A DNA stretch of 64,000 nt from Minisyncoccota bacterium (GCA_036517655.1 DATDVE010000016.1:2979-66978), one strand, 5' to 3'. Shown: positions 5,358-55,100, numbered from the stretch's first letter. Program-made: numbers and translations. The notes: generated from the sequence alone by a model not told the origin.

Positions 5358-6043
5358 TGCTTCCGAATTGGTTCGTCCATTTTACACAGACACTGGTCTC
5401 TATTCCTGCGCGGATAGCTCTGGTTCTGTTCTGCAATCTGAAGGTGGAAGGCCTTGCGAACCTAGAGGGTCTAGGTGCGAGTCGCGGCGTCATTTTAGCC
5501 AGTAATCATTGCAATCAGCTCGACAGTGTTGCATTACCCTGCGCTCTGCCAATTTTATCTTCCCTGGGCCCTGTCTATTTCGTCGCCCTTGAGCACAAGG
5601 ATTACAAGAGGTTCCCTGTTGGTAGATATATTTATGGAACCTGGATCTTCCGAATCCTTGGTGCTTACTCGATCAAGCGCGGTCTTAAGAACTACGCGGC
5701 TAGCCTAGCAACGCATGTCCGACTCCTCTCAAGTGGCAAAACAGTTTCAATTTATCCAGAGGGCAAAATTCACTACGGCGAGGGAATGGGGGAGGCACGT
5801 GGTGGAGTAGCCTACCTGGCCAAAGAGACCGGGGCACCTATTGTGCCAGTTGCGATAACCGGGAGCAAAAACGCCACCCTTCTGGATTTGCTTACTTTTC
5901 GCAGGGAAATAAGAGTCGCATTTGGGCATCCGACCTACTCTAATTACATAGATGAGCCGGACCAACCTGAAGAGACACGGCACCACAAGGCAGCTCAAAA
6001 AGTCATGTATCGAATCGCGGAACTCTCTGTCCCTTTACAGTAG
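5357..6043 (+). CDS. lysophospholipid acyltransferase (PlsC family)
   Basis: HxxxxD acyltransferase motif (NHCNQLD) and a downstream YPEG motif, characteristic of 1-acyl-sn-glycerol-3-phosphate acyltransferases. Confidence 0.7.
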   Translation: MLPNWFVHFTQTLVSIPARIALVLFCNLKVEGLANLEGLGASRGVILASNHCNQLDSVALPCALPILSSLGPVYFVALEHKDYKRFPVGRYIYGTWIFRILGAYSIKRGLKNYAASLATHVRLLSSGKTVSIYPEGKIHYGEGMGEARGGVAYLAKETGAPIVPVAITGSKNATLLDLLTFRREIRVAFGHPTYSNYIDEPDQPEETRHHKAAQKVMYRIAELSVPLQ

Positions 6044-6098
6044 ATAGTTACTATGATATAATTAGGGCAACATTGAACCCCGAAGGGAGGGATGCGAA

Positions 6099-6434
6099 TT
6101 GACGAGGTTTTCGGTTGTAACAGGTGCGTCGTCCGGACTGGGCCGGGCCGTTGCACTTCGACTTGCGATGGAAGGCGATCACGTCCTCCTGCTTGGTCGC
6201 GACGAAGGTCGGCTGTTAGAGACAGCCGACCTCGTGAGCGAGGCTGGCGGAACACCGCTTTTTGAACCGGTGGACATCCGGGACCGACCGGCACTCCGAC
6301 GGGTTCTCCGGACACTAGTGCCTCCGGCGGGGATCGGCCTAGTTGTTCACTGCGCTGGGATTCTCGTTCCGGGAGAAGTGGACGAGATCGGGTATGATGA
6401 CTTAGGCGCTATGTGTGACACGAACGTCCACTAA
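6099..6434 (+). pseudogene. truncated short-chain dehydrogenase/reductase (N-terminal ~45% only), GC-rich
   Basis: TGASSGLG Rossmann motif and an NNAG-like HCAGIL, but the ORF ends at aa 111, before the catalytic S/YxxxK. GC content is far above the neighbours. RBS GGGAGGG upstream and a perfect terminator directly after. Confidence 0.6.
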
Positions 6435-6435
6435 G

Positions 6436-6468
6436 AAAACCCGGAGGGTTACCCTCCGGGTTTTCTTC
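6436..6468 (+). terminator. rho-independent terminator (AAAACCCGGAGGG-TTA-CCCTCCGGGTTTT)
   Basis: Perfect 9-bp GC stem, 3-nt loop, A-tract/T-tract flanks. Confidence 0.75.
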
Positions 6469-6574
6469 CCTCCATAACAGCCGTCGGGCCTATCCCGGGG
6501 GCTGTTTGTTTTATTAAAATTGCTTTATAATGGTTTGTCGGTGTTTATATACCATAAGACATTGTCACAATATA

Positions 6575-7222
6575 ATGAACATATATTTTGTTAGACACGG
6601 AATTACAGGAGGGAATGAATCGAATCAATATCAGTTACCGACTATCGAGTTATCTGAACAAGGAATTAATCAAGCTCAATTCGTAGCAAAACGCTTCAAG
6701 ACCATACCCGTCGAGGTAATATTTGCTAGCCCTATGACAAGAGCCTCTCAGACCGCCAGCATTATTGCTGATAGCATTGGCCTGAAGGTCATGGAGAGCT
6801 CTCTTTTTGAGGAAATAAAACGCCCTTCGATAGTATGTGGCAGAAGTAAGAATGAGCCTGATGTGAAGTCAGTCATGAAGATTGTTAAAGAGACATTTGC
6901 AGATCCAGATAAACGGCACTCCGACGAAGAAGACTATTTCCAGTTGAAGGATAGGGCAGAAGAGGTATTGAAATTCCTTTCGGAGAGAAATGAGAATGAA
7001 ATACTTGTCGTAACTCACGGTGAAATACTGCGGATGATACTTTCGCTAGTTATCTTTGGTAAAGAGCTAACTCCAGAAATATTTGACCAAGTAAGACGAA
7101 CTTTTATACCTCACAACACGGGAATTACCGTCATTCAATATGACCTATCGTTCGAATTCCACAAATCAGGGTGGTATGTACTTAGCTGGAATGACTACGC
7201 TCATCTAGGAGATTCTAGATAG
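6575..7222 (+). CDS. histidine phosphatase family protein (phosphoglycerate mutase-like)
   Basis: N-terminal RHG motif (IYFVRHGITGGN) and C-terminal VTHG motif (LVVTHGEILR). Start chosen at ATG 6575. Confidence 0.7.
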   Translation: MNIYFVRHGITGGNESNQYQLPTIELSEQGINQAQFVAKRFKTIPVEVIFASPMTRASQTASIIADSIGLKVMESSLFEEIKRPSIVCGRSKNEPDVKSVMKIVKETFADPDKRHSDEEDYFQLKDRAEEVLKFLSERNENEILVVTHGEILRMILSLVIFGKELTPEIFDQVRRTFIPHNTGITVIQYDLSFEFHKSGWYVLSWNDYAHLGDSR

Positions 7223-7264
7223 CATTCAAATAAGCAGAGTTCTCAGTAGATAGACTGGCTTAAA

Positions 7265-7565
7265 CTAGCCGAGTATATGTTGAAGCCGTTGATTCGTCTG
7301 GTAGAAGCTCCAAAAGCGGGCCAAGTAGCTTTTCATCCGGTTCAACATGAGGTCGTGTGTCTCCACTGTCATGCAGCCCTGAAAGGGTCTACTTTGAGTG
7401 TGGCTAAGAGTGACCAACGACCCTTCCGTGATGGGAGTGTGGAAAAAGAGCGAGACAACCCCACATGTCCGTACGACTTCACTAGCGACTTTGCCACAGA
7501 CTTATCGTCTTTTGAGCAGATAATGAGAACCCGTTTTGCCATGACCTAACCCTCCTTTGATTTGA
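7265..7565 (+). ncRNA. rnpB: probable RNase P RNA (bacterial type; boundaries approximate)
   Basis: GC-enriched, ORF-poor segment. CR-II-like TGAAAGGGTCT...GGCTAAGAGTGACC (7378-7415; cf. GGUGAAAGGGUG...GGUAAGAGCGCACC). CR-III-like AACCCCAC (7457-7464). P4 strands AAAAGCGGG (7312-7320) and CCCGTTTT (7529-7536) can pair. The called 90-aa ORF has no protein-like features. Confidence 0.5.
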
Positions 7566-7685
7566 ACGTGCTTCCAAGCTGGAAACTAACACAAGTAACA
7601 AGGATATGCAAAGAGAAAAAGTGATTTCAATTGATGTGCATTACTTGATACCGCATACCTGTTTGTTTTGTTATGATAAATAAGT

Positions 7686-8558
7686 ATGGCTCACATTGCA
7701 GATAATGACTCAACATTAAAATATGAGGTGAATACTACCCATAAAAAGGTCTTTAATCTTTTTTTTACTTCTATATTAAACAATCTTCCTGCGTCTGTAG
7801 TGCATCTCATCAAGAAATCTAATTACTCTGCTCATCATGTTATTGAGAATAAGACTAGTCACGAAGCGCTTGAAACACTCTATAGTTGCGGACACTCACA
7901 TCCATCGAGTAACCTTCTAAACAAACTCTTTAGATCTATTTGGTTTAATGTAGATAACTCGAAGGCAGTTAGAAACAGATTAAAGCTGGTTAAGAAGGAA
8001 CTTAAAGTCGCTTTTAGCTCAATAATAGATAGGGAAGAAAAAATAGAATTACTTAGCATAGCATCTGGATCGGCTCGGTCAGTAGTTGAGGCAATTAGTG
8101 AGGCAGGACTTACAGCTGAAAAAATAAGAGCATCCTTCTTAGACAAGAACCCCAACGCCCTAGATTACAGCAAAAGATTAGTGAGTAAATGTGGTTTAAA
8201 GAATTTTCACTTTCGCTGGTTCAACGACGTTGCTTCAAATTTCCCGGTATATTTCGCCAATGCTAAGCCCAACCTTGTAGAAATGGTTGGGTTACTGGAC
8301 TACTTCTCTTTTGATAAAACATTATCTTTATTAAAAGTTATTTATAACAACCTACCTAAAGGCGGAATTCTTATAACAGCGAATATCAGTGACAACCGAG
8401 AGCGTAAGTTTGTTACCAATATAGTTGGATGGCATATGATTTATAAAAACGCTGACGAGTTACGGTCGCTGGCAATATCAGCTGGTTTTAATCCAGATAA
8501 AATACGGGTGATTTATGAACCGCTTCGTATACACTGCGTCTTAATAGCTGAAAAATAA
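7686..8558 (+). CDS. class I SAM-dependent methyltransferase (putative)
   Basis: Motif I-like LLSIASGSARS and post-I acidic residue, LPKGGILI motif; 290 aa. Stop abuts the start of the histidine kinase. Confidence 0.45.
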   Translation: MAHIADNDSTLKYEVNTTHKKVFNLFFTSILNNLPASVVHLIKKSNYSAHHVIENKTSHEALETLYSCGHSHPSSNLLNKLFRSIWFNVDNSKAVRNRLKLVKKELKVAFSSIIDREEKIELLSIASGSARSVVEAISEAGLTAEKIRASFLDKNPNALDYSKRLVSKCGLKNFHFRWFNDVASNFPVYFANAKPNLVEMVGLLDYFSFDKTLSLLKVIYNNLPKGGILITANISDNRERKFVTNIVGWHMIYKNADELRSLAISAGFNPDKIRVIYEPLRIHCVLIAEK

Positions 8559-10169
8559 ATGTCTGACTGGCAAACAACGTCACTTTTCATAGTTTCCGGC
8601 CTTAACGCACTCTTTAGTCTAATTCTGATTAGAGAAGGCAAAAGCCGAGTAAACATAATTTTTTCATTGTTTGTACTAGCCGCTTCTGCCTGGGCGCTTG
8701 GCATTGGCTTGTTTAGAACAATCAATGACATAAATTATTCATTGTACATAGCTAATTTTTACTACGTTGCTGCGGCACTTATCCCATTGCTATTTTTGTA
8801 CTTTTCTCTTGTATTCTTGAATGATAAGAAGCGAATAGGTATTCTCTATTTGTGGCTTGGACTACCCATGATTGCTCTACTAGCGGGACTAGTAATCAAT
8901 CGAAATCTTATTCTTCTTTCTGTGTCCAGCCTTTCTGGCGTTAAAACGGCTACGATAAACCTAATTCCATATTCCATTTATGGCATTTTATTCGTACTTT
9001 ATGTGATTACCTCATTTTTTGTTTTGTTCAGATCGCTATCTCACGCACAGGAACGTGAACAAAAAATCCAGATAAGATTTGTTATCTATGGAACGATTAT
9101 CCCTTATATTTTGGGGATGGTGTTTAATCTGATTCTACCGTGGATAGGGAACTATCAACATATTTGGCTTGGACCTATTTTTTCAATAATGATGGTTGCA
9201 GCGGTTGGCTATGCAGTCGCAAACCACCATCTTTTCAATCTCAAAATTATCGCAACAGAGGTTACTGTTGTTGTCTTGTGGATATTCCTGTTGGTCCGGA
9301 CTCTTGTATCAAGCGGCGTGACTGACCAGATAATAAATGGGTCCACCTTCATTGCTTTAGTGATACTCGGGGTCCTTTTGATTCGGTCTGTCATTAAAGA
9401 AGTCAAAACGCGCGAAAGAATGGAGGCGCTTGCCAAGGAACTTGCTTCGGCCAACGAGCGGCTGACTGTCCTTGATCGTCAGAAATCTGAATTCTTGTCT
9501 ATTGCCTCGCACCAATTGCGTAGCCCGCTTACTGCCATTAAGGGCTATTCATCCATGATTCTTGAGGGCTCTTTTGGGGTGCCTGAGGCTAAGATGAAAG
9601 AGGCCATCGAGCGCATTTATTTATCAAGTGAGCGACTGGTTATTATCATCGAGGACTTCCTGAATGTGTCGCGTATCGAGCAAGGCCGGATGCAGTATGA
9701 TTTCGCAACAGTTAATCTAGAAGAACTTGTGACGGGAGTGACCCAGGAACTAGAACCAAATATCAAGCGGGCCAGATTAGATATCTCTTTTAGCAAAAAG
9801 ACCGCCGGTCCATTCTATATTAATGCTGATTTCGGCAAGATTCGCCAGGTTATAACTAACATCATAGATAACGCTGTCAAATACACACCCGAAGGTGGAA
9901 TTACAGTGAGCCTATCGAAGGATGAAGAGACACGCAAGATCCTGCTTGCCATATCTGACACAGGCATCGGCATCGCCCGTGAGGTGCTGCCCATGCTCTT
10001 CCAGAAATTTACGAGAGCGAAGGGCGCAAGCGAGGTCAACACCCAAGGCACTGGTCTGGGCCTCTATGTAGTCAAAGAACTTATGAAGGCCCACAAAGGC
10101 AGCGTCTGGGTGGATAGCCCAGGCGAAGGCAAAGGCTCTACCTTTTACCTCGAGTTTATGGCAGAATAG
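8559..10169 (+). CDS. sensor histidine kinase with multi-TM N-terminal domain (no response regulator adjacent)
   Basis: About 7 predicted TM helices, then a coiled coil, HisKA H-box (SEFLSIASHQLRSPLTAIKGY) and HATPase_c N/G boxes (DNAVKYT, GTGLGL). Confidence 0.85.
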   Translation: MSDWQTTSLFIVSGLNALFSLILIREGKSRVNIIFSLFVLAASAWALGIGLFRTINDINYSLYIANFYYVAAALIPLLFLYFSLVFLNDKKRIGILYLWLGLPMIALLAGLVINRNLILLSVSSLSGVKTATINLIPYSIYGILFVLYVITSFFVLFRSLSHAQEREQKIQIRFVIYGTIIPYILGMVFNLILPWIGNYQHIWLGPIFSIMMVAAVGYAVANHHLFNLKIIATEVTVVVLWIFLLVRTLVSSGVTDQIINGSTFIALVILGVLLIRSVIKEVKTRERMEALAKELASANERLTVLDRQKSEFLSIASHQLRSPLTAIKGYSSMILEGSFGVPEAKMKEAIERIYLSSERLVIIIEDFLNVSRIEQGRMQYDFATVNLEELVTGVTQELEPNIKRARLDISFSKKTAGPFYINADFGKIRQVITNIIDNAVKYTPEGGITVSLSKDEETRKILLAISDTGIGIAREVLPMLFQKFTRAKGASEVNTQGTGLGLYVVKELMKAHKGSVWVDSPGEGKGSTFYLEFMAE

Positions 10170-10176
10170 TTGCAAT

Positions 10177-12948
10177 ATGAAAAGTCGAGGTGCAATCCTC
10201 GTTCTGGCCATCCTTCTAGTTCCACTATTTGCGTCTGCTAAAAGTCCAAAATTGGCGGGTTTTGAGCGGGACAAGGGCAAGTCAATCACTGTTTCAGAAC
10301 CACTAGGCTGGCCGGCTTCTATCACTGCATCATCTCATGTTAAGGGCACTGTCACGTCTCTGCCGGGGATGACTGTCGTCCGACTTTTGGGCTACGAACC
10401 CTGGTGGAAAATCTGGGGCGATTTGTCCGCTACAACTACTGTCACAATTTCTGGTCTGCCCAAGAATAGCACACTACACATATACACCAGAGGTTATAGA
10501 GAGCACAAAGAAATTAATAGCGATGCGCGCGGAGCAGTTACACTCGATTTTGATTCTGACTCTGGTGCGCAATTTATTATCAAGAGCAACCCATCGACTA
10601 AACACATAGCACTTGATCCATTGCTTGGCCCACCGGGTGGGGATTGTAGCGAGATCGGCACATGGACTGCTATAACACGCACATGCAAGCTCAACCAAGA
10701 CGTATTCGAGACTATTTCCATCGAGGATGCGGGCATTACACTTGATGGCAACAATTTTTCTGTTCGGGGTGCTGACAGTGGCGACGGTATATATACAGAT
10801 GAGAGTGACGTGCGAATCACAAATATAGAAGTGCACCGCTTTGATCGCGGTATTGTCTATTCTGACTCGCTATTTACACTAGCTAGTGGCGGGCAAATAG
10901 ATGGCACAACTCTTGCCGATAATATTCTAAATATTATGGACGAGGGTGTCTCTGATTTAAAGATAACAGATAACGACATTGTAGTTGCGGGTACTGGTAT
11001 ATCACTCGTGGATCAGTTCGATAGCTTCCCAACAGATGGAATTGTCATAGTGCGCAACAGCTTCAAGCAGAATACTAATAATGACCTATTCAACAGCGGC
11101 ACATCATTTGTACTCAATACGGCGACAGACAGGGGTAACTGGTGGGCCAAGAATACGAACTGCACTCAAGATCCCGCTAATCCCGATCATTGCACGAACA
11201 TGTACAACGAAGGCGACGGCACAGACAATGCTCCTTGGGCCTGCGAAAACGCATGGCGAAGTAACGTGAACTGTCCAACTACTCCATTGCCAAACGAAAA
11301 TGGAATATGGGGAGAGGTAACATCCTTTTCCACTGGAACAACAACGTATTACAAGGATTCACCGTTAACCATACCTGTGAAAGTGCTACCAAATGGTTGG
11401 GTGCTCAAGGTTCTAGGCAAGCAGACAGAGAAATGGGAAGTTCAAGATGTCACAGATGATAGTACAGGCTGGGTAAAATCCTCTGATATGAGCAGTGATT
11501 CATCGCTTGACCAAGAGCGAGGAGAAAGGGCCGAAGTTACCAAAACTGATAAAGCCGCTAGAGTTGAAGTAATTGATGAGGCAATTTCACACTTCTACAA
11601 CAATAATTCTGTGAGTGAGTCACTCTATAGCAGTAATTCACTTGGAAGAATGGGGGTACGATCAAATATATCACAGCTCAAATCTTTAGGTTTTGTGAAG
11701 GCCCTTATATACGCTACCGCATCGTGGGAATCAGGAGGAAAGGATTTTAACAATGAACTGGTGACATACGATTACGGACATGGGATAAAGCAGATAACCT
11801 TCCAAGCCTGGTTTAATGAACCTCTAAATTACCAAATGAATACCTGGGATAACAGGGGCCTTGCAAGCAATATCATCATATCTGGATGCGAGAGCGTAAA
11901 AAGCGACAACTACAAAGACTGCTATGTAAATACACAGACTCAAAATAAGTTATTAAAACCGTATAAGCAATTCCAGGATAATCAAGCCAATCCTACTTAC
12001 AAAATGTACTCGAACTCCAGCCAGTCTATTTATGCTAACGTTAAGGATGGAATGGTCCTATTGGCGGGGGCTATGACACGGGCGAATCGTAACATTGGTA
12101 ATCCGGGTATTAACTGGGCCTCTGGATTTAGTTTCCCCTATACGATATCAGACAACGAAATGAAGCAGATGTCTAGCTTAAGAGATTACAACGCTGGCCC
12201 TGGAAGTAGGTGCACACCCGTGCTTAATCCGTATAATCAGTATTACCTAAAAAATGTCGGCCTCAAGTTATCCACAATAAATTCAATCTTCCCTGAACTT
12301 AATTATACTGACACTGACCATTTTGTTGAGAAACTCTCTTTTGCTTCCACAGAACAGGACAGGATTGAGGCTTGTAGCCCTGTGTACGTTCAGGTACTAG
12401 ATTCAGCCAATCGCTTGGTAGGCTATAACGGGACTGCTGTTGTGCACCAAATTCCCAGAGTCACATATGATTACAATGAATATAAAGTTGCTCACGTTTT
12501 GCTCCCAAATGACGACTACAGCTATAGAGCCTTGGGCTATGAAACAGGAACATACTCTCTGTATATTGATAGATTTTCTGAAGAAAAAGGAGATGCTAGT
12601 TTTATTGCAACTGAAATCCCAACATCTCGTGGTGAGATACACGAGTACAACCCAGATTGGAAAGCTTTAGCCACTGGCAAAAGGGGGATGTTAGTCAAAG
12701 TCGACAATGATGGCGATGGAGTATTCGACTATGAATTCGTGGTTGGAAGTGCGCTTACGTCTGATAAGTTTATGAAATTTTCCAAAGAAAACACTGGAAA
12801 AGTGCTTGTCTGTCATATTCCTCCAGGTAATCCACAAAATGTTCGTACAATTTCGATTAGCAATTCTGCGCTAGAGACGCACCTTAATCACGGAGACAAG
12901 GAAGGGGAGTGTCTGTCTGCTACAAAAAGTAAAAATAGAAAGAAGTGA
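10177..12948 (+). CDS. large secreted protein: signal peptide + right-handed beta-helix repeats + SH3b-like segment + SLT lytic transglycosylase-like domain
   Basis: Signal peptide MKSRGAILVLAILLVPLFASA. PbH1-like repeats (ITLDGNNFSV, ITNIEVHRFDRGIV, ITDNDIVVAG). GWVLKV...GWVKSSD motif. SLT-like motifs ES...YGHGIKQI and DYNAGPG. Confidence 0.6.
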   Translation: MKSRGAILVLAILLVPLFASAKSPKLAGFERDKGKSITVSEPLGWPASITASSHVKGTVTSLPGMTVVRLLGYEPWWKIWGDLSATTTVTISGLPKNSTLHIYTRGYREHKEINSDARGAVTLDFDSDSGAQFIIKSNPSTKHIALDPLLGPPGGDCSEIGTWTAITRTCKLNQDVFETISIEDAGITLDGNNFSVRGADSGDGIYTDESDVRITNIEVHRFDRGIVYSDSLFTLASGGQIDGTTLADNILNIMDEGVSDLKITDNDIVVAGTGISLVDQFDSFPTDGIVIVRNSFKQNTNNDLFNSGTSFVLNTATDRGNWWAKNTNCTQDPANPDHCTNMYNEGDGTDNAPWACENAWRSNVNCPTTPLPNENGIWGEVTSFSTGTTTYYKDSPLTIPVKVLPNGWVLKVLGKQTEKWEVQDVTDDSTGWVKSSDMSSDSSLDQERGERAEVTKTDKAARVEVIDEAISHFYNNNSVSESLYSSNSLGRMGVRSNISQLKSLGFVKALIYATASWESGGKDFNNELVTYDYGHGIKQITFQAWFNEPLNYQMNTWDNRGLASNIIISGCESVKSDNYKDCYVNTQTQNKLLKPYKQFQDNQANPTYKMYSNSSQSIYANVKDGMVLLAGAMTRANRNIGNPGINWASGFSFPYTISDNEMKQMSSLRDYNAGPGSRCTPVLNPYNQYYLKNVGLKLSTINSIFPELNYTDTDHFVEKLSFASTEQDRIEACSPVYVQVLDSANRLVGYNGTAVVHQIPRVTYDYNEYKVAHVLLPNDDYSYRALGYETGTYSLYIDRFSEEKGDASFIATEIPTSRGEIHEYNPDWKALATGKRGMLVKVDNDGDGVFDYEFVVGSALTSDKFMKFSKENTGKVLVCHIPPGNPQNVRTISISNSALETHLNHGDKEGECLSATKSKNRKK

Positions 12949-13490
12949 AACAGAAATTTGTAATAATAGCTTTCGTAATTTTGGCAATCGGAATAATTTA
13001 TAAATTTAGATTAGGAGAATTTCGTAATGATATAAAAATAGTAGATCAAACCGCTATATCGTTTACGCTTTTTGACGATAAAAGCAACAAGCATATTGTT
13101 AATTTAGATTCATACATTAGTAGTCCAGATGAAACATTGGGAGAGATTGCGGGTAAGATCGAGTTAATAGTTGCTGATGACTACAGAAATAGAGTTTATG
13201 TTGTTTATAGTAATTCAGGGCTGCCAGGCCGGAACGGTCTTACAAACAATATTCTTAGTTATGATTTATTTACCAAAGAACTGCAACCTCTTCTATACAA
13301 CGAAAGGGAAATCTATGTTAATAATCCATCGGATCTTCGCCTTACCCAAGATTTCCATTATCTCAAGCTTAATTACGGTTTATCAGATGGTGCCTGCAGT
13401 CTCATCACTGGCACTTTGACATGGGATCTTAATATTGCTGGTTCTTCTGCAAAGGACGATCGGAGAATTGAGAAATTAAGTGATTGCTAA
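12945..13490 (+). CDS. hypothetical membrane-anchored protein
   Basis: N-terminal TM (FVIIAFVILAIGIIY), 181 aa. ATGA overlap with the upstream gene. Conserved ~45-nt motif directly downstream. Confidence 0.5.
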   Translation: MKQKFVIIAFVILAIGIIYKFRLGEFRNDIKIVDQTAISFTLFDDKSNKHIVNLDSYISSPDETLGEIAGKIELIVADDYRNRVYVVYSNSGLPGRNGLTNNILSYDLFTKELQPLLYNEREIYVNNPSDLRLTQDFHYLKLNYGLSDGACSLITGTLTWDLNIAGSSAKDDRRIEKLSDC

Positions 13491-13634
13491 TTTCCAGTAC
13501 CTTCGCCGTTGTCTATGTCCATGGTATATTTGTATAACTATGTGGGGTCAATACAAAACAGAGTGGCTCTGCAGGATCAATATGACTACGGCTATTTCGT
13601 CTCCAGCGAGGGTTCAAACTAACACGAAGGAGAA

Positions 13635-14306
13635 ATGAAAAAGTATTTCTTGGGGGCACTCTTGCTTGTGGTACTTGTCGCTGTAGGTATTGTCCTATCA
13701 AGAAATTCACACCCAGCGATAGAAGCTCCATCAATGCTAGAACTATCTCAGGCAATCTATCCGTATGAAAGCGACCTTGCTACAAGCCCAGAGGCGTTGG
13801 TGGCAGAATTGAGTCTAGTTGAAACAATTCCTGTGAACGGAGGGTCACTGCTCTTCGTTGGGAGTGAGTCTCTATCGGGGTCAAGCAATATTTCCGGTCT
13901 TATTTTGCTAAACACGGGGGCCAGAGAACTCAAGGTAATTGCACCATTCACTGTGTCGCTGGGATCACAAAATAATAGATATCTTGTATCTCCGGATAAT
14001 GCTTACGTTGCCATTGAAACCCTTGCTACAGTTAGTGCAAATTGTGCCTACCCATCAATCACCATTAGTAGACTGGATTCGTTTCCCAGTCCATTTGAAA
14101 ATGTAGTAATGGTTGGCGAGCCGTCGCTACGAGAGAGCACAGACCCAGACAAGGAAGTTTATAACGCAGTAGAGGGGGCTAACTGGACAGCGAGTAACTT
14201 GCAATTCAAGCAGTCTCTCGTCAAATGTACAACAGGAAACACGCTTATAGGCCCTCTCCCATTGCAATACAGTCCCGGCACCGGCCAGTACTCTAGAGAA
14301 CAGTAA
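13635..14306 (+). CDS. hypothetical membrane-anchored/secreted protein
   Basis: N-terminal TM/signal (YFLGALLLVVLVAVGIVL), 223 aa. RBS AAGGAG upstream. The same ~45-nt downstream motif as the previous gene. Confidence 0.5.
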   Translation: MKKYFLGALLLVVLVAVGIVLSRNSHPAIEAPSMLELSQAIYPYESDLATSPEALVAELSLVETIPVNGGSLLFVGSESLSGSSNISGLILLNTGARELKVIAPFTVSLGSQNNRYLVSPDNAYVAIETLATVSANCAYPSITISRLDSFPSPFENVVMVGEPSLRESTDPDKEVYNAVEGANWTASNLQFKQSLVKCTTGNTLIGPLPLQYSPGTGQYSREQ

Positions 14307-14399
14307 GTGAGTTGACTAATCACCCGTGCCTTCGCCATTGTTTGTGTCTTCACCCGGCATATTTTTAGTTTCTATAAATAACTTTGTAAAAAGCTCGTT

Positions 14400-15398
14400 T
14401 TGAGCTATGATTATAACATGACAGAGTCCAAAAAAGTTCTTCTTTCGGGGATGAAGCCTACTGGGCGGCCTCATATCGGCAACTATTTCGGCGCTATGAA
14501 GCAATTTGTTGATCTGCAGGGACAGTACTCGCCTTATTATATTATGGTCGCTGATTATCATGCGCTTAACTTTATTCAAGATGCGAGCGAGATGCGCTCG
14601 CTTAGTCACGAGATGGTACTCGACTTTTTGGCAATTGGGCTGGATCCAGAGAAGGTGATCTTGTTCAAACAATCTGATGTGCCAGAGCATACAGAGCTTT
14701 GCTGGATATTCGACACTATTACTACCATGCCGTATCTCATGCGCTCGCATGCTTACAAAGATGCCGAGGCAAAAGATAAGGAAATTAGCGTGGGCACTTT
14801 TAACTACCCCATGCTAATGGCAGCAGATATTCTGCTCTACGACGCCAACTGCGTGCCGGTGGGACAGGATCAGAAGCAACATGTCGAGTATGCTCGCGAC
14901 ACTGCCCAGAAGTTCAATAGAATTTTTAACGAAATATTCACACTTCCAGAAGCGCTGATCATGAAAGATGTTGCGATAGTGCCCGGCATAGACGGTCGCA
15001 AAATGAGCAAGAGTTATAAAAATGACATCAAGCTTTTTAGTTCCGACGAGGAAATTCGTAAGCAAGTGATGAGCATTGTCACAGACTCGAAGGGCAAGGG
15101 TGAAGTACTTGATCCCGAAACAGACAATATATTTGCCCTACACAAATTATTCACTGGACCTGATCAACTTCGACACTTGTCGTCGGAGTACAGGGCGGGG
15201 GAGATTGGGTATAAAGAATCGAAAGAGTTACTGGCAGAGAATATAATCAAATTCATTTCACCCATGAGGGCAAAGCGCGAAGAACTTGCCAAGGATTCTG
15301 GTTTGACAGGAAAAGTGCTAAAAGCGGGTGGCGATAAAGCTCGAGTCAAGGCGAGTGAGACTATTGCAAAGGTGCGCAAACTAATTGGGGTGGTATAA
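14400..15398 (+). CDS. trpS: tryptophan--tRNA ligase
   Basis: Class I HIGH (GRPHIGNY) and KMSKS (KMSKS) motifs; ~330 aa TrpRS size. Confidence 0.9.
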   Translation: MSYDYNMTESKKVLLSGMKPTGRPHIGNYFGAMKQFVDLQGQYSPYYIMVADYHALNFIQDASEMRSLSHEMVLDFLAIGLDPEKVILFKQSDVPEHTELCWIFDTITTMPYLMRSHAYKDAEAKDKEISVGTFNYPMLMAADILLYDANCVPVGQDQKQHVEYARDTAQKFNRIFNEIFTLPEALIMKDVAIVPGIDGRKMSKSYKNDIKLFSSDEEIRKQVMSIVTDSKGKGEVLDPETDNIFALHKLFTGPDQLRHLSSEYRAGEIGYKESKELLAENIIKFISPMRAKREELAKDSGLTGKVLKAGGDKARVKASETIAKVRKLIGVV

Positions 15399-23895: not shown

Positions 23896-25176
23896 GTGGA
23901 TAGGAAAATTTATATAATTTTAGTAATTACACTTTCACTTAGCGCCCAGGGCGCTAAGTTGACAGGACTAGTTGAGGCGCAGGAGGTTGCGGGGCAGATT
24001 GGGGAGACACAGGCTAAGATTAAACAACTTGAGAGTGAGATTGCTAGTACGGAGAAGGAGCTGACTAAAACAGAGCGGGAGAAAAATACACTCTCGAATG
24101 CGGTAAAGAGTCTTGACTTGACTAAGAAGAAACTCGAGGCAGAGACTAAAATTACAGAGAATAAAGTCGCTCTCACCAGTAGTTCTATTGAGAGTTTGTC
24201 AGAGCAGATAATTGCTCACACGCAAGAAATTGATAAGCGCGTGGGGGATATTGCGATAGTACTGCGTAATATTGCAGGAGCGCTTGACGCAACACCCACT
24301 GAAATCTTTCTGTCTGACTCGAGCATTTCGGAGAAGCTCGATAGTATGTATACACTTGAGCGCTTGCAGAATCGCGTACGCATAGACTTAGAAGAACTCA
24401 AGGCAGTGCGTGTGAAGTTAATCTCTGATAAACAAGAGCTTGAGGAAGCCAGGGAGAAGCTCTTTGCCCTTCGTAGCGAACTCGGCGACAAGCAGAAGCT
24501 CGCCATACAGAATATTGAGAGTAAGAGCAAACTGCTTGCTGATACGAAGAATAAAGAATCTAGTTACAGAACTTTGCTCGACCAAAAGATTGCACAGAAG
24601 GCTGCATTCGAACAAGAGTTGCGTAATTTCGAAACTAAACTGAAGGGGATTGATGTTTCTAAGCTTCCCACGGGAGGAACAGGTATCCTAAGCTGGCCAC
24701 TTGCGAGTGTTTTAGTCACCCAGACGTTCGGCGATACCGAGTTCTCACGTTCGTCTGCTGGCGCTATATACAGAGGCAACGGCCATAACGGCATTGACCT
24801 GCGCGCATCTGTCGGAACTGCTGTATATTCTGCCGGCGGCGGAAAGGTAGCCGGCACGGGCAATACAGATCTCGGTTGTCCTGGAGGGTCGTATGGCAAA
24901 TGGATCTTGATAGACCACGGCAACGGTCTCTCAACTCTATATGCGCATTTATCTTTGCAGAGGGTGAGTACGGGTGAGGATGTTGAGCGCGGAGGCTTGA
25001 TTGGCTACAGTGGCAATACTGGCTACTCCACAGGACCGCATTTACACTTCACCGTTTATGCGTCAGAAGGTGTTAAAATTACTAAGCTGATCAGGGCAGA
25101 CGGTAGTGTCAGCAAGTGTGCTGAAATGCCCGTTTCGCCATTAAATGGCTATCTGAATCCACTATTGTACTTATAA
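23896..25176 (+). CDS. M23 family metallopeptidase with N-terminal coiled coil (EnvC/NlpD-like murein hydrolase factor)
   Basis: Signal peptide, ~250 aa coiled-coil region, LytM motifs (HNGIDL, HLHF). Confidence 0.8.
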   Translation: MDRKIYIILVITLSLSAQGAKLTGLVEAQEVAGQIGETQAKIKQLESEIASTEKELTKTEREKNTLSNAVKSLDLTKKKLEAETKITENKVALTSSSIESLSEQIIAHTQEIDKRVGDIAIVLRNIAGALDATPTEIFLSDSSISEKLDSMYTLERLQNRVRIDLEELKAVRVKLISDKQELEEAREKLFALRSELGDKQKLAIQNIESKSKLLADTKNKESSYRTLLDQKIAQKAAFEQELRNFETKLKGIDVSKLPTGGTGILSWPLASVLVTQTFGDTEFSRSSAGAIYRGNGHNGIDLRASVGTAVYSAGGGKVAGTGNTDLGCPGGSYGKWILIDHGNGLSTLYAHLSLQRVSTGEDVERGGLIGYSGNTGYSTGPHLHFTVYASEGVKITKLIRADGSVSKCAEMPVSPLNGYLNPLLYL

Positions 25177-25180
25177 ATAC

Positions 25181-25465
25181 ATGAACAAAGGCTTCATAAG
25201 CATGATACTCATCTTCGTAGTCCTAATTTTGATTGTGAGTGCCTTCAAGCTCAACTTGGGAGGTTATATGGACGCGAGCCCAGAGCAAGCCCTAGATAGC
25301 AATATAGTGCTTATAATTCAAACAGGGAAGATAGTTTGGTCAGATTACATCAAGGGGCCCTTAGTAACGATTTGGAATGAATACATAGCGCCGTTTGCAA
25401 GGGGTGACTGGCTTTCTAGTTTAAGGAGTAGGGAAGAAGCCCGCACAACCTTGCCACCAGAATAG
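25181..25465 (+). CDS. hypothetical small membrane protein
   Basis: N-terminal TM (ISMILIFVVLILIVSAF), 94 aa; directly downstream of the M23 peptidase. Confidence 0.4.
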   Translation: MNKGFISMILIFVVLILIVSAFKLNLGGYMDASPEQALDSNIVLIIQTGKIVWSDYIKGPLVTIWNEYIAPFARGDWLSSLRSREEARTTLPPE

Positions 25466-25572
25466 ATAGTCCATAATGTCGCAAAAGGTATATTGTGCGA
25501 CGTAGTGCTATATAAGTTATCCACAGTCACTTACTATTACAACACATCTCCCCTCTCTAGATCAGTGGACGT

Positions 25573-26397
25573 TCAGAGCTTCTCTAAAACTTTTTTAGAA
25601 TACTCCAGTAATTGTGCGCGCAGAATTTTATTTGAAGCAAACATAGAATCTTTCCAGCGCAGCTCGCTCTGCTTGTAATCCAGTGGACGACCAAGGAGAT
25701 CAGTGACCTCTCCCCCAGCCTCTCGCAGGATCGCCTCTGGAGCACAAGTGTCCCATTTGCTCAATCGTCTATTGGTAGCAATATAGACATCAGCACTACC
25801 GTCAGAAATTAATCCCAGCGCCACACCTATCCCCGAGGATGGTATACGTTTGCCCACGCTCATGGAATCAATGACTTCATATGAGGGGCGTACCTCGCTA
25901 CTATCTTTCCTGATAATTAGCCTGGCTTCGGATAGTGTCTTAGTAGCACTTACAAATATTTGCCTCCTAGATTCTTGCGCCAAAACAAACGCACCTCGTC
26001 CAACCTCTCCAAAATACAACAGATGTTTGCGTGGCACGTTAACCACACCGAATACTGGCCGACCGTTTCGACATAGTCCTATATGCACGCCGAAACTGTC
26101 ATCGCCCTTGATGTACGACTTAGTGCCATCGAGTGGGTCAATCATCCATACGTCACTAGAATAATCACTCGGAATCTCACTACTCTCTTCAGAAAGAATT
26201 GCGTTGGTGGGGAAGAGCTTGCCAATCGCCTCTCTGGCCATTGCATCCGCCTCTTTGTCGGCAATGGTTACAGGGTTAAAGCGATCGTTCTCTTTACTTT
26301 CTACGTTCAGGTTTCCGCTTTGATATCGCACAAGCAATTCACCAATCTTTTGAGCCAGCTCTATTACCTTGAGATATCTTGGGTCAGATAAGTCCAT
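25573..26397 (-). CDS. inositol monophosphatase family protein (SuhB/CysQ-like)
   Basis: IMPase metal-binding motifs (WMIDPLDGT, EES...). Confidence 0.8.
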   Translation of the reverse strand: MDLSDPRYLKVIELAQKIGELLVRYQSGNLNVESKENDRFNPVTIADKEADAMAREAIGKLFPTNAILSEESSEIPSDYSSDVWMIDPLDGTKSYIKGDDSFGVHIGLCRNGRPVFGVVNVPRKHLLYFGEVGRGAFVLAQESRRQIFVSATKTLSEARLIIRKDSSEVRPSYEVIDSMSVGKRIPSSGIGVALGLISDGSADVYIATNRRLSKWDTCAPEAILREAGGEVTDLLGRPLDYKQSELRWKDSMFASNKILRAQLLEYSKKVLEKL

Positions 26398-26418
26398 ATA
26401 TGTTTGTTATGCTTATAG

Positions 26419-26769
26419 TCACAGCCCCGGGCAATTAGCGGCGGGTGTGAGACCTCTGGCTTCGGCTTGCTCTTTACTCGAGAAATAAATCTTATTTTCT
26501 TCTTTTATTCTGCTCACGCCAGAACAAGAAAGTAGATAATATTTAGTGCCATTCCTTGATGCTACATAATTCTGCACTCCCCCACTCTCTCGAGCGGCTT
26601 GCCCGGCAAGCGTAGCGCCGAGGACTTCTGGTGCAAAGTTCAGTGGCTGCTCAATAACTAGATCTGGTTTATTTTCTTCTATCTTGGATAATCTACCTAA
26701 GCCAAACGAGAAGCTAGCAACTAATATGATAATTATGGGAATGAAGGCTGATTTGAAGCGCTCTTGCAT
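26419..26769 (-). CDS. membrane-anchored protein with C-terminal Ada-like metal-binding (sunset-type) domain
   Basis: N-terminal TM, then a C-terminal segment ([38 protein letters not shown]) matching the Ada N-terminal Zn-binding pattern. Confidence 0.45.
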
Positions 26770-26801
26770 TTTTTTTCGTTTTCTGTATTATATCTCTTAC
26801 T

Positions 26802-27074
26802 ATGGCACATAAGAAGGCCGGCGGGTCAACAAAAAATTTACGCGATTCCAATCCCAAGTACTTGGGCATTAAACTTAGTGACGGCCAAATCGCTAAGTCT
26901 GGTTCTATTATCTTGCGCCAAAGGGGCACAGTGTACCTACCCGGCAGGAACGTAGGCCTTGGTAAAGATCACACAATTTTTGCCCTCAAAGAAGGTCTCG
27001 TAAAATTCGCCACCAAACGCAAAACAAGCTTCACCGGCAAGAGCAAAATCTCCCCCATAGTCAGCGTTGTGTAA
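26802..27074 (+). CDS. rpmA: 50S ribosomal protein L27
   Basis: [12 protein letters not shown]...[14 protein letters not shown] matches L27. Confidence 0.9.
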
Positions 27075-52149: not shown

Positions 52150-55100
52150 TTAAAGTGCTGGGTCCGGGACTGGATCGGGCGCAGGTTCTTGTACGGGCTC
52201 CGCAATAGGCTCGGGTATTGGCTCTGTCACAACCTCCGGCATAACTTCCGGTTCAGAAACAACTTCCGGTTCAGGAATTATGTCTGGCTCGGGAACAATC
52301 TCGGATGCAGTATCAGTGCCGGGATCGATGCTAGCGCCCGAGGCTTCCAGAAGAGATTTAAATTCATTTCTGGTAACACAGATGTCTTCAACGCAAAGCT
52401 TATCAGTTACAACTTCGTCAGCTTCTAATCTCTTAACTCGCAGAGTTCCACTTTCGTCTATAGACCAGTTACTCGAATCTTTTTTAATTGAGTCGGCAAC
52501 AGTAAGTTGTGCGGGTGAAGCTTGATTCCGCAGATTAACGAAGACAAGCACCTTGCCCTCTTTTTCTGGTTCGTTATTCCAATCTTCAAGAGCCACCCCG
52601 AGAGCCGCCTCGCCCTCATTCGCCTTTTTACCAACGCCAGGCTCACTACCAGCGGATACCCAGTCGCCCTTAGAGATAGGCCCGTTATCGAGATTAACCT
52701 TAACGGGCACACGACCAACTAATGCGATGATCGGCCTCGTTGAAGTACCCTGCCTGCCCGGACCAATGATGACATCGGAGCCATTTATACCTATTGCTGG
52801 AGCCGTAGAAACTACACCTATAAGAACCTCGTCATGAATACCTTTATGCAGAACAGCCTTATCGACTACCCCTGTGTCAAGCGAGGCAATGTCACCCGCC
52901 TCCATGACTTCAGACGCCGGATATCGCTCGCCAATATCGAAGACTTCACCAATATCGTCCGCATCTGGCGTCTGATCAGAAGTGTCAACAGCGAGACCAC
53001 CCATTGACAAACCAGCACCAGAGATCGGACACGAAGTCCCCGCCGTAATACAAACCGCACCTTGAACAACCAGACCGCCCGCGTCCAAAGTCGCCGTTGT
53101 AGTACCAATCCTTACTAAACCATTGTTTTTCTGCACAGACAAATATCTATCGCCAACGGCGAATATCTGCCCATCCGATGGCGATGTCGTACCCACAGAA
53201 AGAATGCCGGCAAATGTAGAGGTAGCAATCGTGCTCGTGGCAAAATATTTATCCGCGACCACGCCACTCTCCCCCACAACAGAAAGTGACGCGTATGGTG
53301 AAGTAGTGCTGATGCCCAAGTATCCACTGCTAGTGAGCCGCATCCACTCGGTTAAACCCACCGATGAATTCTTGGTAGAGAACGTGAGAACACTTTTTGG
53401 AGACGTAGTTGATGTGTTTGTCAGCACACCAGCAATCCTCGCCGTGGTACTGCTCGTCGTAGCATTATCCTGCACAGAGAAGGTCAGTGCTGAACCGATG
53501 CCCGACGCTACCCCCAGAGAGGAGGTGGCCATATGGCCTATATCAAGCGCGTCGCTCACGCTGTTACGAAATGTGTCCGAGATGGTAGAACGCAACGAGG
53601 GGAAGATGGCAATGGTGCTTGTAGAATAGGTACTGAATATGCCTGGTCCGTATGAGCCGATGCCCCCGCCCCCAACTGTTAGGCCAGAGCCGACATACAA
53701 CCTGCCCCCAACCGTAAGTCCGTTGATAACACTTGCCGCACCCGCTTCAAGGTTGTGGGCCACAACGGATTGGGCTTCAATGCCGGTGGTGTCGAAAATA
53801 TGAAGAGCACTCTCGGCCGAAATAAGGTACCTGCCCATAAGGGCGATACCGTGTCCGGTTGCAGCATCTGCTTCATTAGTAGAGCCAATCTGCCGTGGAT
53901 TATAGGGATCGGATATGTCATAGGCACGAATTGCGTTAGTGAACCCGCCACCTAAGTGGAATGATACGTACATGTATTTCCCGGCAATGATTAAACGCTC
54001 TGCGTCTGCGCCTACTTCTACTCCACCTATTTCTACTGGGGAATTAATGTTTTGTATGTCAAAAATTCTTATTTCATTGGCCCCGGCGTTGGCGGCGGTC
54101 GTCACATAGGCGTAACGCCCCCGGACCTCTATCTGCGTAGCACTCGCATTAACGTCAAGTGACCCAACTTTTTTAAGTAAATTGGGATTTGTAATGTCGT
54201 ATATACCTACATCACCTCCAAATAGGCTAGAGAAAAGGTACTTGCCAAACACTTCCACTTTTTGTTGAGCATTTGATTCATTGATCCCACTTACAAAAAC
54301 CGGATTCGCTGGATTCGTAATATCGTAAACCATAATATCCTGCGACAAACTATCGCTTCCAGCAACAAACAGTAATCCACCGGATACAACAGCATCTCTA
54401 ATTATATTTGATCCACCAGTATCAATCCCTCCTATTTTGATAGGTATTCTTGGATTTGACATGTCCCATATTTCGAGATCGTCACCGCTAACGGTGCCAT
54501 ATGAAATGTAGGCATAATGTCCGTACGAACTAAAATTGTTCGGGGCTGCTGCTATACTTGTGGTACTAACCAAAGTGGTGCTTGCCGTTGGGGAAATCTC
54601 GTACACAACTAACTCACCGTTAACTGTCGCACCAAATAAGTATCGACCAAAGGTGCTCATATGGGTGAGGCGACTTGTTCCTGTTGGAAGTGCTACCGTA
54701 TCCAACAATATCATCGTACTTGTCGTAGCCGTGTCGCCGAGCATTTGAATTATATTGCCAGCGGTGACAGAAAGAGCTGACATGGGCGTTGTCGTGCTAA
54801 TGCCCACTTTGGTAGCGCCTGCGGGATATATGGCGGTTAAGTCAACACTTGACGTGGCCCATTTGGAAATAGAAGTGGCGGGAATTGTACCTACGCACAC
54901 ACTATTTATTGCGAAGCAACCCCTGCCGGCAGATAAGTTAATGCCGTTGGCAAATGTTGATGTCGCAGTACTGACAGAGGCCAGAGCTGATGTCGTGGCC
55001 CAGCCTGATACGATTAGGTTGGTGGTAGAAGCAAGATTATAGACGTTTAGATTACTTGTCGTAGCCGCAATGGCGAAAAGCTTGATAAAGCTTGAGGTGG

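Follow-up and report, generated by a model that had tools for sequence, protein, structure and literature searches.

Class III bacteriocins such as lysostaphin and zoocin A are secreted wall hydrolases aimed at other bacteria; they join a catalytic domain to a wall-targeting domain (SH3b in lysostaphin) and are encoded next to an immunity gene, and the immunity genes (Lif/Epr, Zif) specify FemABX-like enzymes that alter the cross-bridge. We analyzed a 64,000-nt stretch of DNA from a Minisyncoccota bacterium (GCA_036517655.1, DATDVE010000016.1:2979-66978; the whole stretch is called the window below) that encodes a protein of related layout. This protein, here called BIG, is the 923-amino acid product of an open reading frame (ORF) at positions 10177 to 12948 on the + strand, predicted from sequence and model to be a secreted multidomain wall hydrolase, and is identical to the NCBI metagenome-assembled genome protein VJB98_02395 (Candidatus Paceibacterota), which is annotated as hypothetical. 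Like the bacteriolysins, BIG appears to be exported by the Sec route, combines a putative catalytic domain with an SH3b domain and has an adjacent gene for which a protective role can be proposed. It differs from them in being far larger and built on a β-helix scaffold, and in having as its partner a small, hypervariable, single-pass membrane protein without a recognizable domain.

The predicted catalytic domain of BIG finds its closest described relatives among the GH23/SLT enzymes (Slt70, MltC, MltE and goose egg-white lysozyme, GEWL), which provide its best fold matches and with which it shares an aligned catalytic Glu and colinear E-S, G-x-G-(I/L)-x-Q, N-I-x-D-G helix and Y-N-x-G motifs. 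Unlike those enzymes, the BIG family falls below every curated threshold, has a family-specific insert of ~70 residues (~542 to 610, with Cys571 and Cys582) between motif II and the next helix, and conserves the additional residues Asn526, Asp532, Tyr611, Asn613 and Lys623. Its domain is also flanked by an SH3b domain and a C-terminal β-sandwich: module hidden Markov models (HMMs) run on 152 family representatives found the SH3b in 131, the GH23-like domain in 152 and the second sandwich in 149, and these three modules form a conserved unit.

The organization of the locus recalls the contact-dependent growth inhibition (CDI) pair CdiA-CT/CdiI and the Rhs systems, with which it has in common a constant N-terminus, a variable module, a small gene apparently exchanged with it, and orphan 3' fragments with orphan partners; orphan immunity in polymorphic toxin loci is discussed in PMC10539506. 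In contrast to CDI and Rhs, the BIG locus has no T5, T6 or T7 apparatus and no Rhs or filamentous repeats, only a Sec signal peptide; its payloads are predicted wall hydrolases acting outside the membrane, and a conserved C-terminal mini-domain follows the variable module. Wall hydrolases of several bond specificities, with a putative protective protein in the compartment of the enzyme, also relate the locus to the peptidoglycan-hydrolase effectors and periplasmic immunity proteins of type VI secretion systems (T6SS; Tse1/Tsi1 and Tse3/Tsi3) and to the endopeptidases of Bdellovibrio, whose DD-endopeptidases are accompanied by the self-protection protein Bd3460 (as cited in PMC8080830, reference 32). 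The delivery route differs from both, and protection by the partner is a proposal in the case of BIG.

Our best explanation of the whole, to which we give a probability of roughly 0.55, is that BIG is an exported enzyme that cleaves glycan strands, that its cassette is exchanged together with a partner gene, and that it acts outward while a membrane partner protects the producer or controls the enzyme. What the analysis adds is a large GH23-like family that had gone unrecognized and, in Paceibacteria, a polymorphic cassette locus linked to a partner gene. A first-pass annotation had read BIG as a secreted muralytic enzyme carrying β-helix repeats, a GW/SH3b-like segment and SLT motifs; this is still the best reading, and profile, fold and motif evidence, from methods that reach deeper than Pfam, points to all three elements.

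A predicted GH23-like catalytic domain

The central part of BIG contains the following features.

11494 to 12354, + strand: divergent GH23/SLT-like catalytic domain, residues 440 to 726 (profile alignment, AlphaFold2 (AF2) model, Foldseek)
11728 to 11730, + strand: codon of Glu518, the predicted catalytic acid (translation check; conserved in 152 of 152 representatives)

An exhaustive HMMER search with an eight-sequence profile retrieved 299 cluster representatives (clustered at 50% identity) at E ≤ 1e-3 and 261 at E ≤ 1e-10. Conservation and the main profile are based on the 152 family representatives, and a further profile, A5, on 40 sequences. The motifs of the domain are WE518S (motif I, within WESGG at 517 to 521 of BIG), G534-x-G-I-K-Q539-I-T (motif II, within YGHGIKQIT at 533 to 541), an N-x-K-D-G helix (621 to 625) and Y671-N-A-G (motif III, within DYNAGPG at 670 to 676). 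Glu518, Asn526, Gly534 and Gln539 are invariant in all 152 representatives, the residue after Glu518 is Ser or Thr in 125 of them, and conservation of at least 95% extends to Asp532, Gly536, Thr541, Cys582, Tyr611, Asn613, Gln616, Asn621, Lys623, Asp624 and the Tyr and Asn of the Y-N-G motif. Glu518 aligns with the catalytic Glu of goose lysozyme (RES), MltE (IES) and Slt70 (QES); conservation of the ES glutamate with SLT family members, which the first-pass annotation had named as a check, is thus borne out.

When A5 was searched against PDB sequences, the top matches were goose-type lysozymes (E 0.0097 to 0.1), aligned on RES...GFGLMQV; the eight-sequence full-length profile returned from PDB sequences solely a chance match to a fructokinase (E 0.37). 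SLT was the only Pfam family that recurred in scans of individual members, reaching E ≤ 1 in 11 of 40, all sub-threshold; the scores of P0002 (14 bits) and P0018 (20.7 bits) lie below the cutoff of 21.3 bits, and BIG itself did not match the Pfam SLT model PF01464 even at E ≤ 10. In hhalign comparisons with single sequences, A5 gave 79.5% for MltE, 82.9% for goose lysozyme and 27.7% for Slt70, with Glu518 placed on the catalytic Glu each time (the goose lysozyme sequence was partly confirmed by the PDB alignment; Slt70 and MltC, MltD, MltE and MltF were taken from the annotated MG1655 record). The 152-sequence profile, compared with an alignment of Slt70, MltC, MltD, MltE, MltF and goose lysozyme, gave a probability of 95.7% (E 1.1e-8) across 145 colinear columns, which take in the E-S of motif I, the G-L-M-Q of motif II, the N-I-x-x-G helix and the A-Y-N-x-G of motif III. 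The score of this alignment was 61.4, against 9 to 13 for reversed or column-shuffled templates and 24 to 35 for block-shuffled templates.

An AF2 model of the central domain made with the 40-sequence alignment reached a predicted local distance difference test score (pLDDT) of 91.6 and a predicted template modeling score (pTM) of 0.91. Foldseek analysis of this model against the PDB identified MltC as the best match (PDB ID: 4cfo, probability 0.96, E 0.019), together with ten MltE entries, a Pseudomonas Slt and Slt70, all of which are statistically weak, and the best named viral fold matches were LT_GEWL, GEWL-like proteins and a muramidase. The full-length BIG model matched β-helix and SH3b folds in Foldseek and gave no lysozyme-like match, because residues 528 to 610 are poorly modeled in it; the central part appears there as a helical domain at 442 to 725. 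On these profile and fold data the central domain is very probably a highly divergent GH23/SLT-like catalytic domain with Glu518 as its predicted acid; its chemistry may be either that of a lytic transglycosylase or lysozyme-type hydrolysis. Glu518 offers a concrete catalytic residue to mutate.

We considered whether the domain could instead be a catalytically dead, lysozyme-like binding module, which would make BIG merely an adhesin. Such a module would fit the distance of the domain from all curated SLT models and the adhesion-type N-terminal domains of many family members, but the catalytic Glu and the motif residues around it show no or almost no variation across 152 representatives spanning <30% identity, and bona fide hydrolase domains (NlpC/P60, M23) occupy the same position in other members, so that we hold this explanation to be highly improbable. 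A phage tail lysin or depolymerase was another candidate, dropped because a tblastn search of BIG against 50,697 phage records gave no match.

The complete BIG architecture is present in 15 of the 152 representatives. Elsewhere the conserved unit is fused to Beta_helix, NosD, Lcl_C, β-propellers, RCC1, LRR, Laminin_G or PKD modules, and the source databases name family members as hypothetical, NosD or parallel β-helix proteins of Parcubacteria/Paceibacterota. A search of a limited body of literature turned up neither the GH23-like family nor the locus organization. As judged from its motifs and profiles, the family is a putative remote, unannotated branch of GH23, and its 299 clusters represent predicted wall-cleaving domains that current annotation does not recognize.

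Domain architecture of BIG

The full-length AF2 model of BIG was built from eight full-length homologs and has a mean pLDDT of 69.6. Pfam and NCBIfam scans of the whole protein and of the isolated central and C-terminal parts returned nothing above threshold. Around the catalytic domain, BIG is laid out as follows.

10177 to 10239, + strand: signal peptide, residues 1 to 21, with the cleavage motif ASA before KS (direct reading; hydrophobic core modeled as a helix at 5 to 13 and conserved in homologs)
10261 to 10608, + strand: N-terminal β-sandwich, residues 29 to 144 (AF2 pLDDT ~80 to 90; 79% identical to P0002)
10624 to 11112, + strand: right-handed parallel β-helix, residues 150 to 312, NosD/CASH-like (AF2 pLDDT 85 to 94; Foldseek)
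11113 to 11286, + strand: Cys-rich connector, residues 313 to 370, RGNWW...C329..C339..PWAC356..C366P (invariant Cys and Trp columns; low AF2 confidence)
11296 to 11487, + strand: SH3b-like β-barrel, residues 374 to 437 (Foldseek; sub-threshold Pfam SH3_3)
12355 to 12762, + strand: second β-sandwich, residues 727 to 862, which travels with the GH23-like domain (AF2 pLDDT 80 to 92)
12799 to 12945, + strand: C-terminal Cys/His mini-domain and Lys-rich tail, CHIPPGNPQNVRT...HLNHGD..GEC, residues 879 to 912 (invariant columns, translation)

The N-terminus, MKSRGAILVLAILLVPLFASA followed by KS, reads as a Sec signal peptide, and a (S/V/T)SAK motif stands at that position in all homologs; export of the protein, as claimed in the first-pass annotation, is the natural prediction. 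BIG contains 12 Cys residues.

The β-helix comprises ~160 residues in roughly 7 rungs, with short strands repeating over 161 to 307 in the AF2 model. Its Foldseek matches in the PDB include a GH87 glucanase (PDB ID: 6k0v, E 9.4e-4), the tailspike LKA1 gp49 (PDB ID: 4ru4) and entries 7w1c, 9k4a, 4z06 and 6kfn, and Klebsiella capsule depolymerases and pectate/alginate lyases are among them. The curated β-helix models NosD (PF05048) and Beta_helix (PF13229) did not match BIG; homolog P0010 passes Pfam NosD (26.9 versus 23.6 bits), and P0012 and P0014 are listed with PF05048. A Pfam search for SLT and Beta_helix was the check suggested in the first-pass annotation, and to take its empty result for BIG as disproof of an enzyme would have been wrong. 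That the helix is itself a polysaccharide lyase or hydrolase, giving a two-activity enzyme that opens a capsule, S-layer glycan or wall polymer first and then peptidoglycan, would be compatible with the explanation preferred here; its best fold matches are enzymes (GH87 glucanase, LKA1 tailspike, Klebsiella depolymerases, pectate/alginate lyases), the helix of P0013 gives a weak GH49 match (E 2.7e-4), and P0012 has two helices. However, the helix of BIG is short, the helices of the family match the generic NosD and Beta_helix repeat models alone and no catalytic constellation was identified, and we regard a catalytic helix as improbable.

The SH3b barrel has six strands over 377 to 434 in the AF2 model. 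Foldseek matched it to 6bim, 6biq, 4r0k, 3npf and 2krs over ~70 residues with probabilities of 0.99 to 1.0 and root mean square deviations (rmsd) of 2 to 3.6 Å; matches of the 6bim type are SH3b domains of NlpC/P60-type proteins. The Pfam model SH3_3 (PF08239) stays below its cutoff in BIG (E 0.058, 14 bits versus 27) and gives E 0.014 in P0010, and 8 of 42 other family members pass E ≤ 1e-3.

The C-terminal Cys/His mini-domain is modeled as a small α/β unit and is common to all cassette variants; no Pfam or NCBIfam model matches it. Conservation of Cys, His and Asp in it hints at a disulfide or a metal site. The motif, C-H-x-P-P-G-N-P-x-N-x-x-T...A-H-L-x-H-G-D-x-x-G-x-C, is ~35 residues long (12811 to 12912 in the window) and mobile, as it also occurs in P0160, P0161, P0164, P0168 and P0171. 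Lipoproteins of the CarboxypepD_reg-like type from Gemmatimonadota carry it in C-terminal tandem pairs with 76% identity to the window copy, and in P0171 it sits immediately past the signal peptide.

Cassette exchange on a constant scaffold

BIG and its closest homologs were compared across a set of 11 related loci (the window, L001, L003/L004, L005, L007, L008, L011, L012, L013, L017 and L018). Homologs that match the first ~40% of BIG carry other hydrolases, namely NlpC/P60 (P0008, P0011), M23 (P0012) and an M64-like domain (P0005), and P0013 has a fifth cassette type, without a family match, on the same scaffold. Residues 1 to 370 are common to the variants at 41 to 89% identity, and the connector forms the end of this constant N-terminal scaffold: BLAST similarity to the variant proteins stops at 366 to 370. 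P0005 and P0008 are 65% identical to BIG over residues 1 to 370 and are otherwise alike just in the last 50 to 60 residues by BLAST. The nearest relative of the cassette that we found is 36% identical.

The closest full-length relative of BIG, P0002 (locus L001), was used for a module-by-module comparison, with these identities.

First β-sandwich: 79%
β-helix: 89%
Cys-rich connector: 86%
SH3b: 44%
GH23-like domain: 29%
Second β-sandwich: 40%
C-terminus: 49%

At the DNA level, blastn of the window against L001 shows 72 to 75% identity up to 11259, no match over 11260 to 13587 and 91.8% identity from 13588. The features at and beyond this break are listed below.

11260 to 13587, + strand: segment replaced relative to L001, comprising BIG from codon ~362 to its end plus W_a (blastn)
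12945 to 13490, + strand: W_a, a small single-pass membrane protein of 181 amino acids, whose GTG start overlaps the BIG stop by 4 nt
13588 to 13634, + strand: remnant, the last 16 codons of a P0002-like BIG gene, TTAISSPARVQTNTKEK versus TATSSPAKVKTNMKKK in P0002 (DNA alignment, translations)
13635 to 14306, + strand: W_b, a small single-pass membrane protein of 223 amino acids, 92% identical to the gene after the BIG homolog in L001

The remnant keeps the ATGA stop/start overlap into W_b, whose counterpart in L001 lies directly 3' of P0002, and W_a, inside the replaced segment, has no counterpart there. From the remnant and the match of W_b to the downstream gene of P0002, we infer that an incoming cassette, together with the gene downstream of it, displaced an older BIG 3' end and left a stub and the orphan partner W_b. 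The first-pass annotation had missed this exchange of cassette plus partner and the orphan remnant downstream, which together are the most informative feature of the locus.

Similar orphans are found at L007 12800 to 12970, L011 9050 to 9241 and L012 6965 to 7183; they are fragments of the Cys/His C-terminal motif, degenerate or preceded by stop codons, and 3' of each lies a further single-pass membrane gene. L017 (P0004, GH23-like) and L011 (P0013) form a second mosaic pair, with 82% DNA identity over the scaffold only. Two observations concern the variant loci themselves. Residues ~400 to 740 of P0013 (L011 6001 to 8547) include GGCGASIESCGCNLVSG, a segment rich in Cys that might be part of a cysteine peptidase. 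At L018 3863 to 5057, 3' of an NlpC/P60 variant and its partner, lie two NTP_transf_2 nucleotidyltransferase genes and a HEPN gene; NTP_transf_2 and HEPN are typical of toxin-antitoxin or defense modules, and this points to a variable island in that genome.

Downstream partner proteins

A gene for a protein of 140 to 290 amino acids with one N-terminal membrane helix lies 3' of the enzyme in 11 of 11 loci and usually overlaps the enzyme stop by 4 nt. W_a conforms to this, with an N-terminal hydrophobic anchor, and is the candidate cognate partner of the present cassette. Neither W_a nor the other downstream partners match a Pfam family, and the partners are mostly unrelated to one another: their alignment shows 16 to 20% identity with two invariant columns, and phmmer searches among them found three related pairs. 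Homology is clear between the partners of two NlpC/P60 variants (E 4e-43), although the scaffolds of those variants are only 65% and 48% identical to BIG; the sample is small. The orphan partner of L012 is a truncated paralog of the current partner. Effector-immunity pairs are marked by a fixed gene position, a partner type that changes with the cassette (seen here in the sole testable pair), hypervariability and orphan copies, and by analogy, on few data, these traits would suit such a pair here.

Attack on other cells or housekeeping

Bacteria that belong to the candidate phyla radiation (CPR) lack an outer membrane; the producer of BIG is one of them, which sets it apart from the T6SS and Bdellovibrio cases. 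In our model, Sec export would bring BIG to the extracytoplasmic side, where it would cleave the glycan strands of peptidoglycan with Glu518 of the E-S motif as predicted general acid. The constant scaffold (residues 1 to 370) would carry the cassette, composed of SH3b, GH23-like domain and β-sandwich (374 to 862), followed by the Cys/His mini-domain and the Lys-rich tail; the β-helix may bind a wall polymer and the SH3b peptidoglycan, which would target the enzyme to the cell-wall surface. Recombination 3' of the scaffold would exchange cassette, gene 3' end and overlapping membrane-protein gene together, leaving orphan 3' fragments and orphan partner genes, which in the window would be 13588 to 13634 and 13635 to 14306. 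For the enzyme, the most likely site of action lies outside the producer, on the wall of another organism (a host or a competitor), and the membrane-anchored partner, with its bulk facing outward, may protect the producer in the manner of an immunity protein or otherwise control the enzyme. For the part of this model that makes BIG an outward-directed effector with a protective partner, we see the chances as about even.

A role in breaching host envelopes has been proposed for the secreted wall hydrolases of CPR bacteria (PMC11665869, PMC8080830), and reviews speak of lytic transglycosylases only as "proposed" to act on CPR hosts (PMC11665869). The BIG locus would offer a handle on how CPR/Patescibacteria breach or remodel walls on other cells.

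Several points weigh against the model. No curated model recognizes the catalytic domain of BIG, and no partner has a recognizable fold or family. Gene order, topology, a single case of co-variation of partner and cassette, and four orphan remnants are what the immunity reading is based on, and the paralog in L012 could equally stem from duplication or displacement. The genes for D-Ala-D-Ala carboxypeptidase, FtsW/RodA and MurG are close to the locus, in a conserved housekeeping neighborhood, which fits an autolysin. Some Paceibacteria parasitize methanogenic archaea without murein (PMC10936435), and a host wall can therefore not be assumed as the target of BIG.

The main rival is accordingly a housekeeping autolysin that remodels the wall of the producer itself, in growth, septum splitting or the insertion of pili or secretion machines, with the membrane protein as activator, anchor or negative regulator. 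Even with their reduced genomes, CPR bacteria continue to synthesize peptidoglycan and require one or more enzymes that cleave its glycan strands. The surroundings are those of core and cell-wall genes (DnaK-DnaJ, tryptophanyl-tRNA synthetase (TrpRS), aspartyl-tRNA synthetase (AspRS), ScpAB, the carboxypeptidase, FtsW/RodA, MurG), and there is precedent for autolysin regulators bound to the membrane, such as CxaR for Sle1 (PMC12755775). However, the flanking genes are 53 to 92% identical while the cassette is 29 to 44% identical or of a different enzyme class; such divergence is unusual for a housekeeping enzyme and weakens the rival. The partner genes are, moreover, hypervariable, the downstream sequence has collected orphan 3' fragments with orphan partners, and the cassette is fused across the family to varied adhesion or binding modules (LRR, RCC1, β-propellers, Laminin_G, PKD). 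An autolysin with a membrane regulator is thus favored by the neighborhood and disfavored by the pattern of exchange and orphans, and we consider it unlikely.

Cassette exchange, co-traveling partners and orphan remnants point to diversifying exchange as in antagonistic systems, which makes the choice between attack and housekeeping testable. Taking the effector model further, we tentatively entertain a Sec-dependent polymorphic wall-hydrolase effector system of Paceibacteria, in which a fixed β-helix scaffold would carry interchangeable cassettes, each with a membrane-anchored immunity protein, C-terminal displacement would proceed as in CDI and Rhs, and the enzymes would be used on hosts or competitors in episymbiosis; in one lineage the system might be connected to an orphan seven-transmembrane (7TM) kinase and a methyltransferase, as sensors of contact or of the state of the envelope. 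If true, the largest uncultivated bacterial radiation would possess a polymorphic-toxin-like system that works without specialized secretion machinery.

A facultatively linked histidine kinase

Two genes precede BIG on the same strand.

7686 to 8558, + strand: Methyltransf_20-family S-adenosylmethionine (SAM) methyltransferase gene, 290 amino acids (Pfam PF12147, 34.9 bits versus a cutoff of 21)
8559 to 10169, + strand: orphan membrane histidine kinase gene, 536 amino acids (Pfam domains, box motifs)

The kinase has HisKA_7TM at residues 11 to 228 (Pfam, 49.1 bits versus a cutoff of 28.6), HisKA at 308 to 376 (60.2 bits) and HATPase_c at 427 to 533 (96.5 bits), the latter two likewise above their Pfam cutoffs. 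His318 of the H-box is intact, the N, G1, F and G2 boxes lie at 437, 467, 481 and 497, and a crude hydropathy scan showed nine hydrophobic segments, made up of the 7TM domain and two more at 228 to 279. The 7TM plus HisKA/HATPase makeup given in the first-pass annotation is thereby confirmed. An AgrC-like peptide-pheromone class was rejected for this kinase, as it has a standard HisKA domain and matches HATPase_c_5 merely at E 0.028.

The absence of a response regulator from the window, also noted in the first-pass annotation, stands. Searches of six-frame ORFs of at least 60 amino acids in the window, with phmmer queries CheY, PhoB, OmpR, Spo0F and NarL and an HMM built from them, gave no significant receiver domain, and Pfam scans of 36 window ORFs, including all of regulator-like size, contained housekeeping families only and no PF00072; nor was PF00072 listed in any related locus. 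WalK/WalR provides the known case of a membrane histidine kinase that controls autolysins. The likeness is that a membrane kinase is genetically associated with a wall hydrolase and that the kinase core resembles WalK and PnpS (163 to 187 bits, NCBIfam). In contrast to WalK/WalR, the window kinase scores far under the equivalog cutoffs of 400 to 725 bits, has a 7TM sensor without an extracytoplasmic domain and is accompanied by no response regulator in the window.

A 7TM kinase stands beside the family member in 5 of 11 loci (the window, L001, L003/L004, L013 and L005) and is missing from L007, L008, L011, L012, L017 and L018. The orthologs are 56 to 63% identical in L003, L005 and L013 and 76% in L001, where the gene is cut by the contig end yet clearly encodes the same kinase. 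The order methyltransferase-kinase-enzyme is found in the window, L003/L004 and L013. The methyltransferase and kinase genes form a conserved abutting pair, 0 to 3 nt apart, at 7686 to 10169 in the window, 5453 to 7963 in L003 and 1839 to 4340 in L013, and the window methyltransferase is 57 to 62% identical to the copies in L003/L004 and L013. The pairing of a methyltransferase with a receptor kinase recalls, as an analogy, CheR-type receptor methylation.

That the kinase adjacency is inherited synteny without functional coupling, the methyltransferase-kinase pair being an independent signaling unit that lies upstream by chance, comes in our estimate somewhat short of an even chance. It would account for the six loci that have no kinase, for the shared TrpRS-linked neighborhood of four of the five loci that do, for the α/β-hydrolase gene between kinase and enzyme in L005 and for the lack of a response regulator nearby in the window and related loci. 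However, L003/L004 keeps the block of methyltransferase, kinase, enzyme and small gene although both flanks differ and the enzyme is merely 32% identical, and because of these differences L003 is informative on the linkage; in the window, moreover, tight gaps and the lack of a convincing terminator hold the genes together. Since the kinase is found in 5 of 11 loci, four of these share one neighborhood and no regulator was seen, the kinase-enzyme association is real but facultative and supports co-transcription at most. Sensor control of BIG by the kinase, which the first-pass annotation had envisaged, is for the same reasons not established and is put forward as a hypothesis. Should the kinase link prove real, it would offer a rare clue to episymbiont sensing; as it stands it is weak.

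Gene block and neighborhood

The methyltransferase stop abuts the kinase start directly, and the kinase stop TAG (10167 to 10169) is followed by the 7-nt spacer TTGCAAT and the BIG ATG at 10177, which places the BIG start 8 nt past the last stop base, as the first-pass annotation had counted. With the overlap into W_a, the successive gaps of the block are 0, 7 and -4 nt, and because they are so tight we suggest that methyltransferase, kinase, BIG and W_a are co-transcribed. A promoter and terminator scan gave no informative or convincing signal between these four genes, and Rfam had no match in 6000 to 15000. The likeliest place for the promoter of the block is the 463-nt gap 5' of the methyltransferase (7223 to 7685), the sole content of which is a doubtful 90-amino acid ORF (7277 to 7549); a consensus promoter scan of this gap found nothing convincing. 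The wider neighborhood consists of conserved core genes, with DnaK-DnaJ upstream and TrpRS, AspRS, ScpAB, D-Ala-D-Ala carboxypeptidase, FtsW/RodA and MurG downstream.

Other features of the window

An ORF of 111 amino acids at 6099 to 6434 matches the N-terminal half only of a short-chain dehydrogenase (adh_short positions 4 to 109 of 195) and lies between the acyltransferase and histidine-phosphatase genes, where it probably represents what is left of a truncated gene; other genes occupy this place in L005. On the - strand, two large overlapping ORFs of 1395 and 774 amino acids (52150 to 56337 and 56334 to 58658) are followed by three ORFs of 272 to 311 amino acids without a Pfam match (58655 to 61214). 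The ORFs of 52150 to 61214 may form another surface-protein cluster, and none of them has the BIG scaffold or C-terminal motif. The cumulative GC skew peaks near 26 kb, and gene orientation switches from + (1 to 25 kb) to - (25 to 61 kb); because the strands converge with G>C on each leading side, ~25000 to 27000 suggests a replication-terminus-like region.

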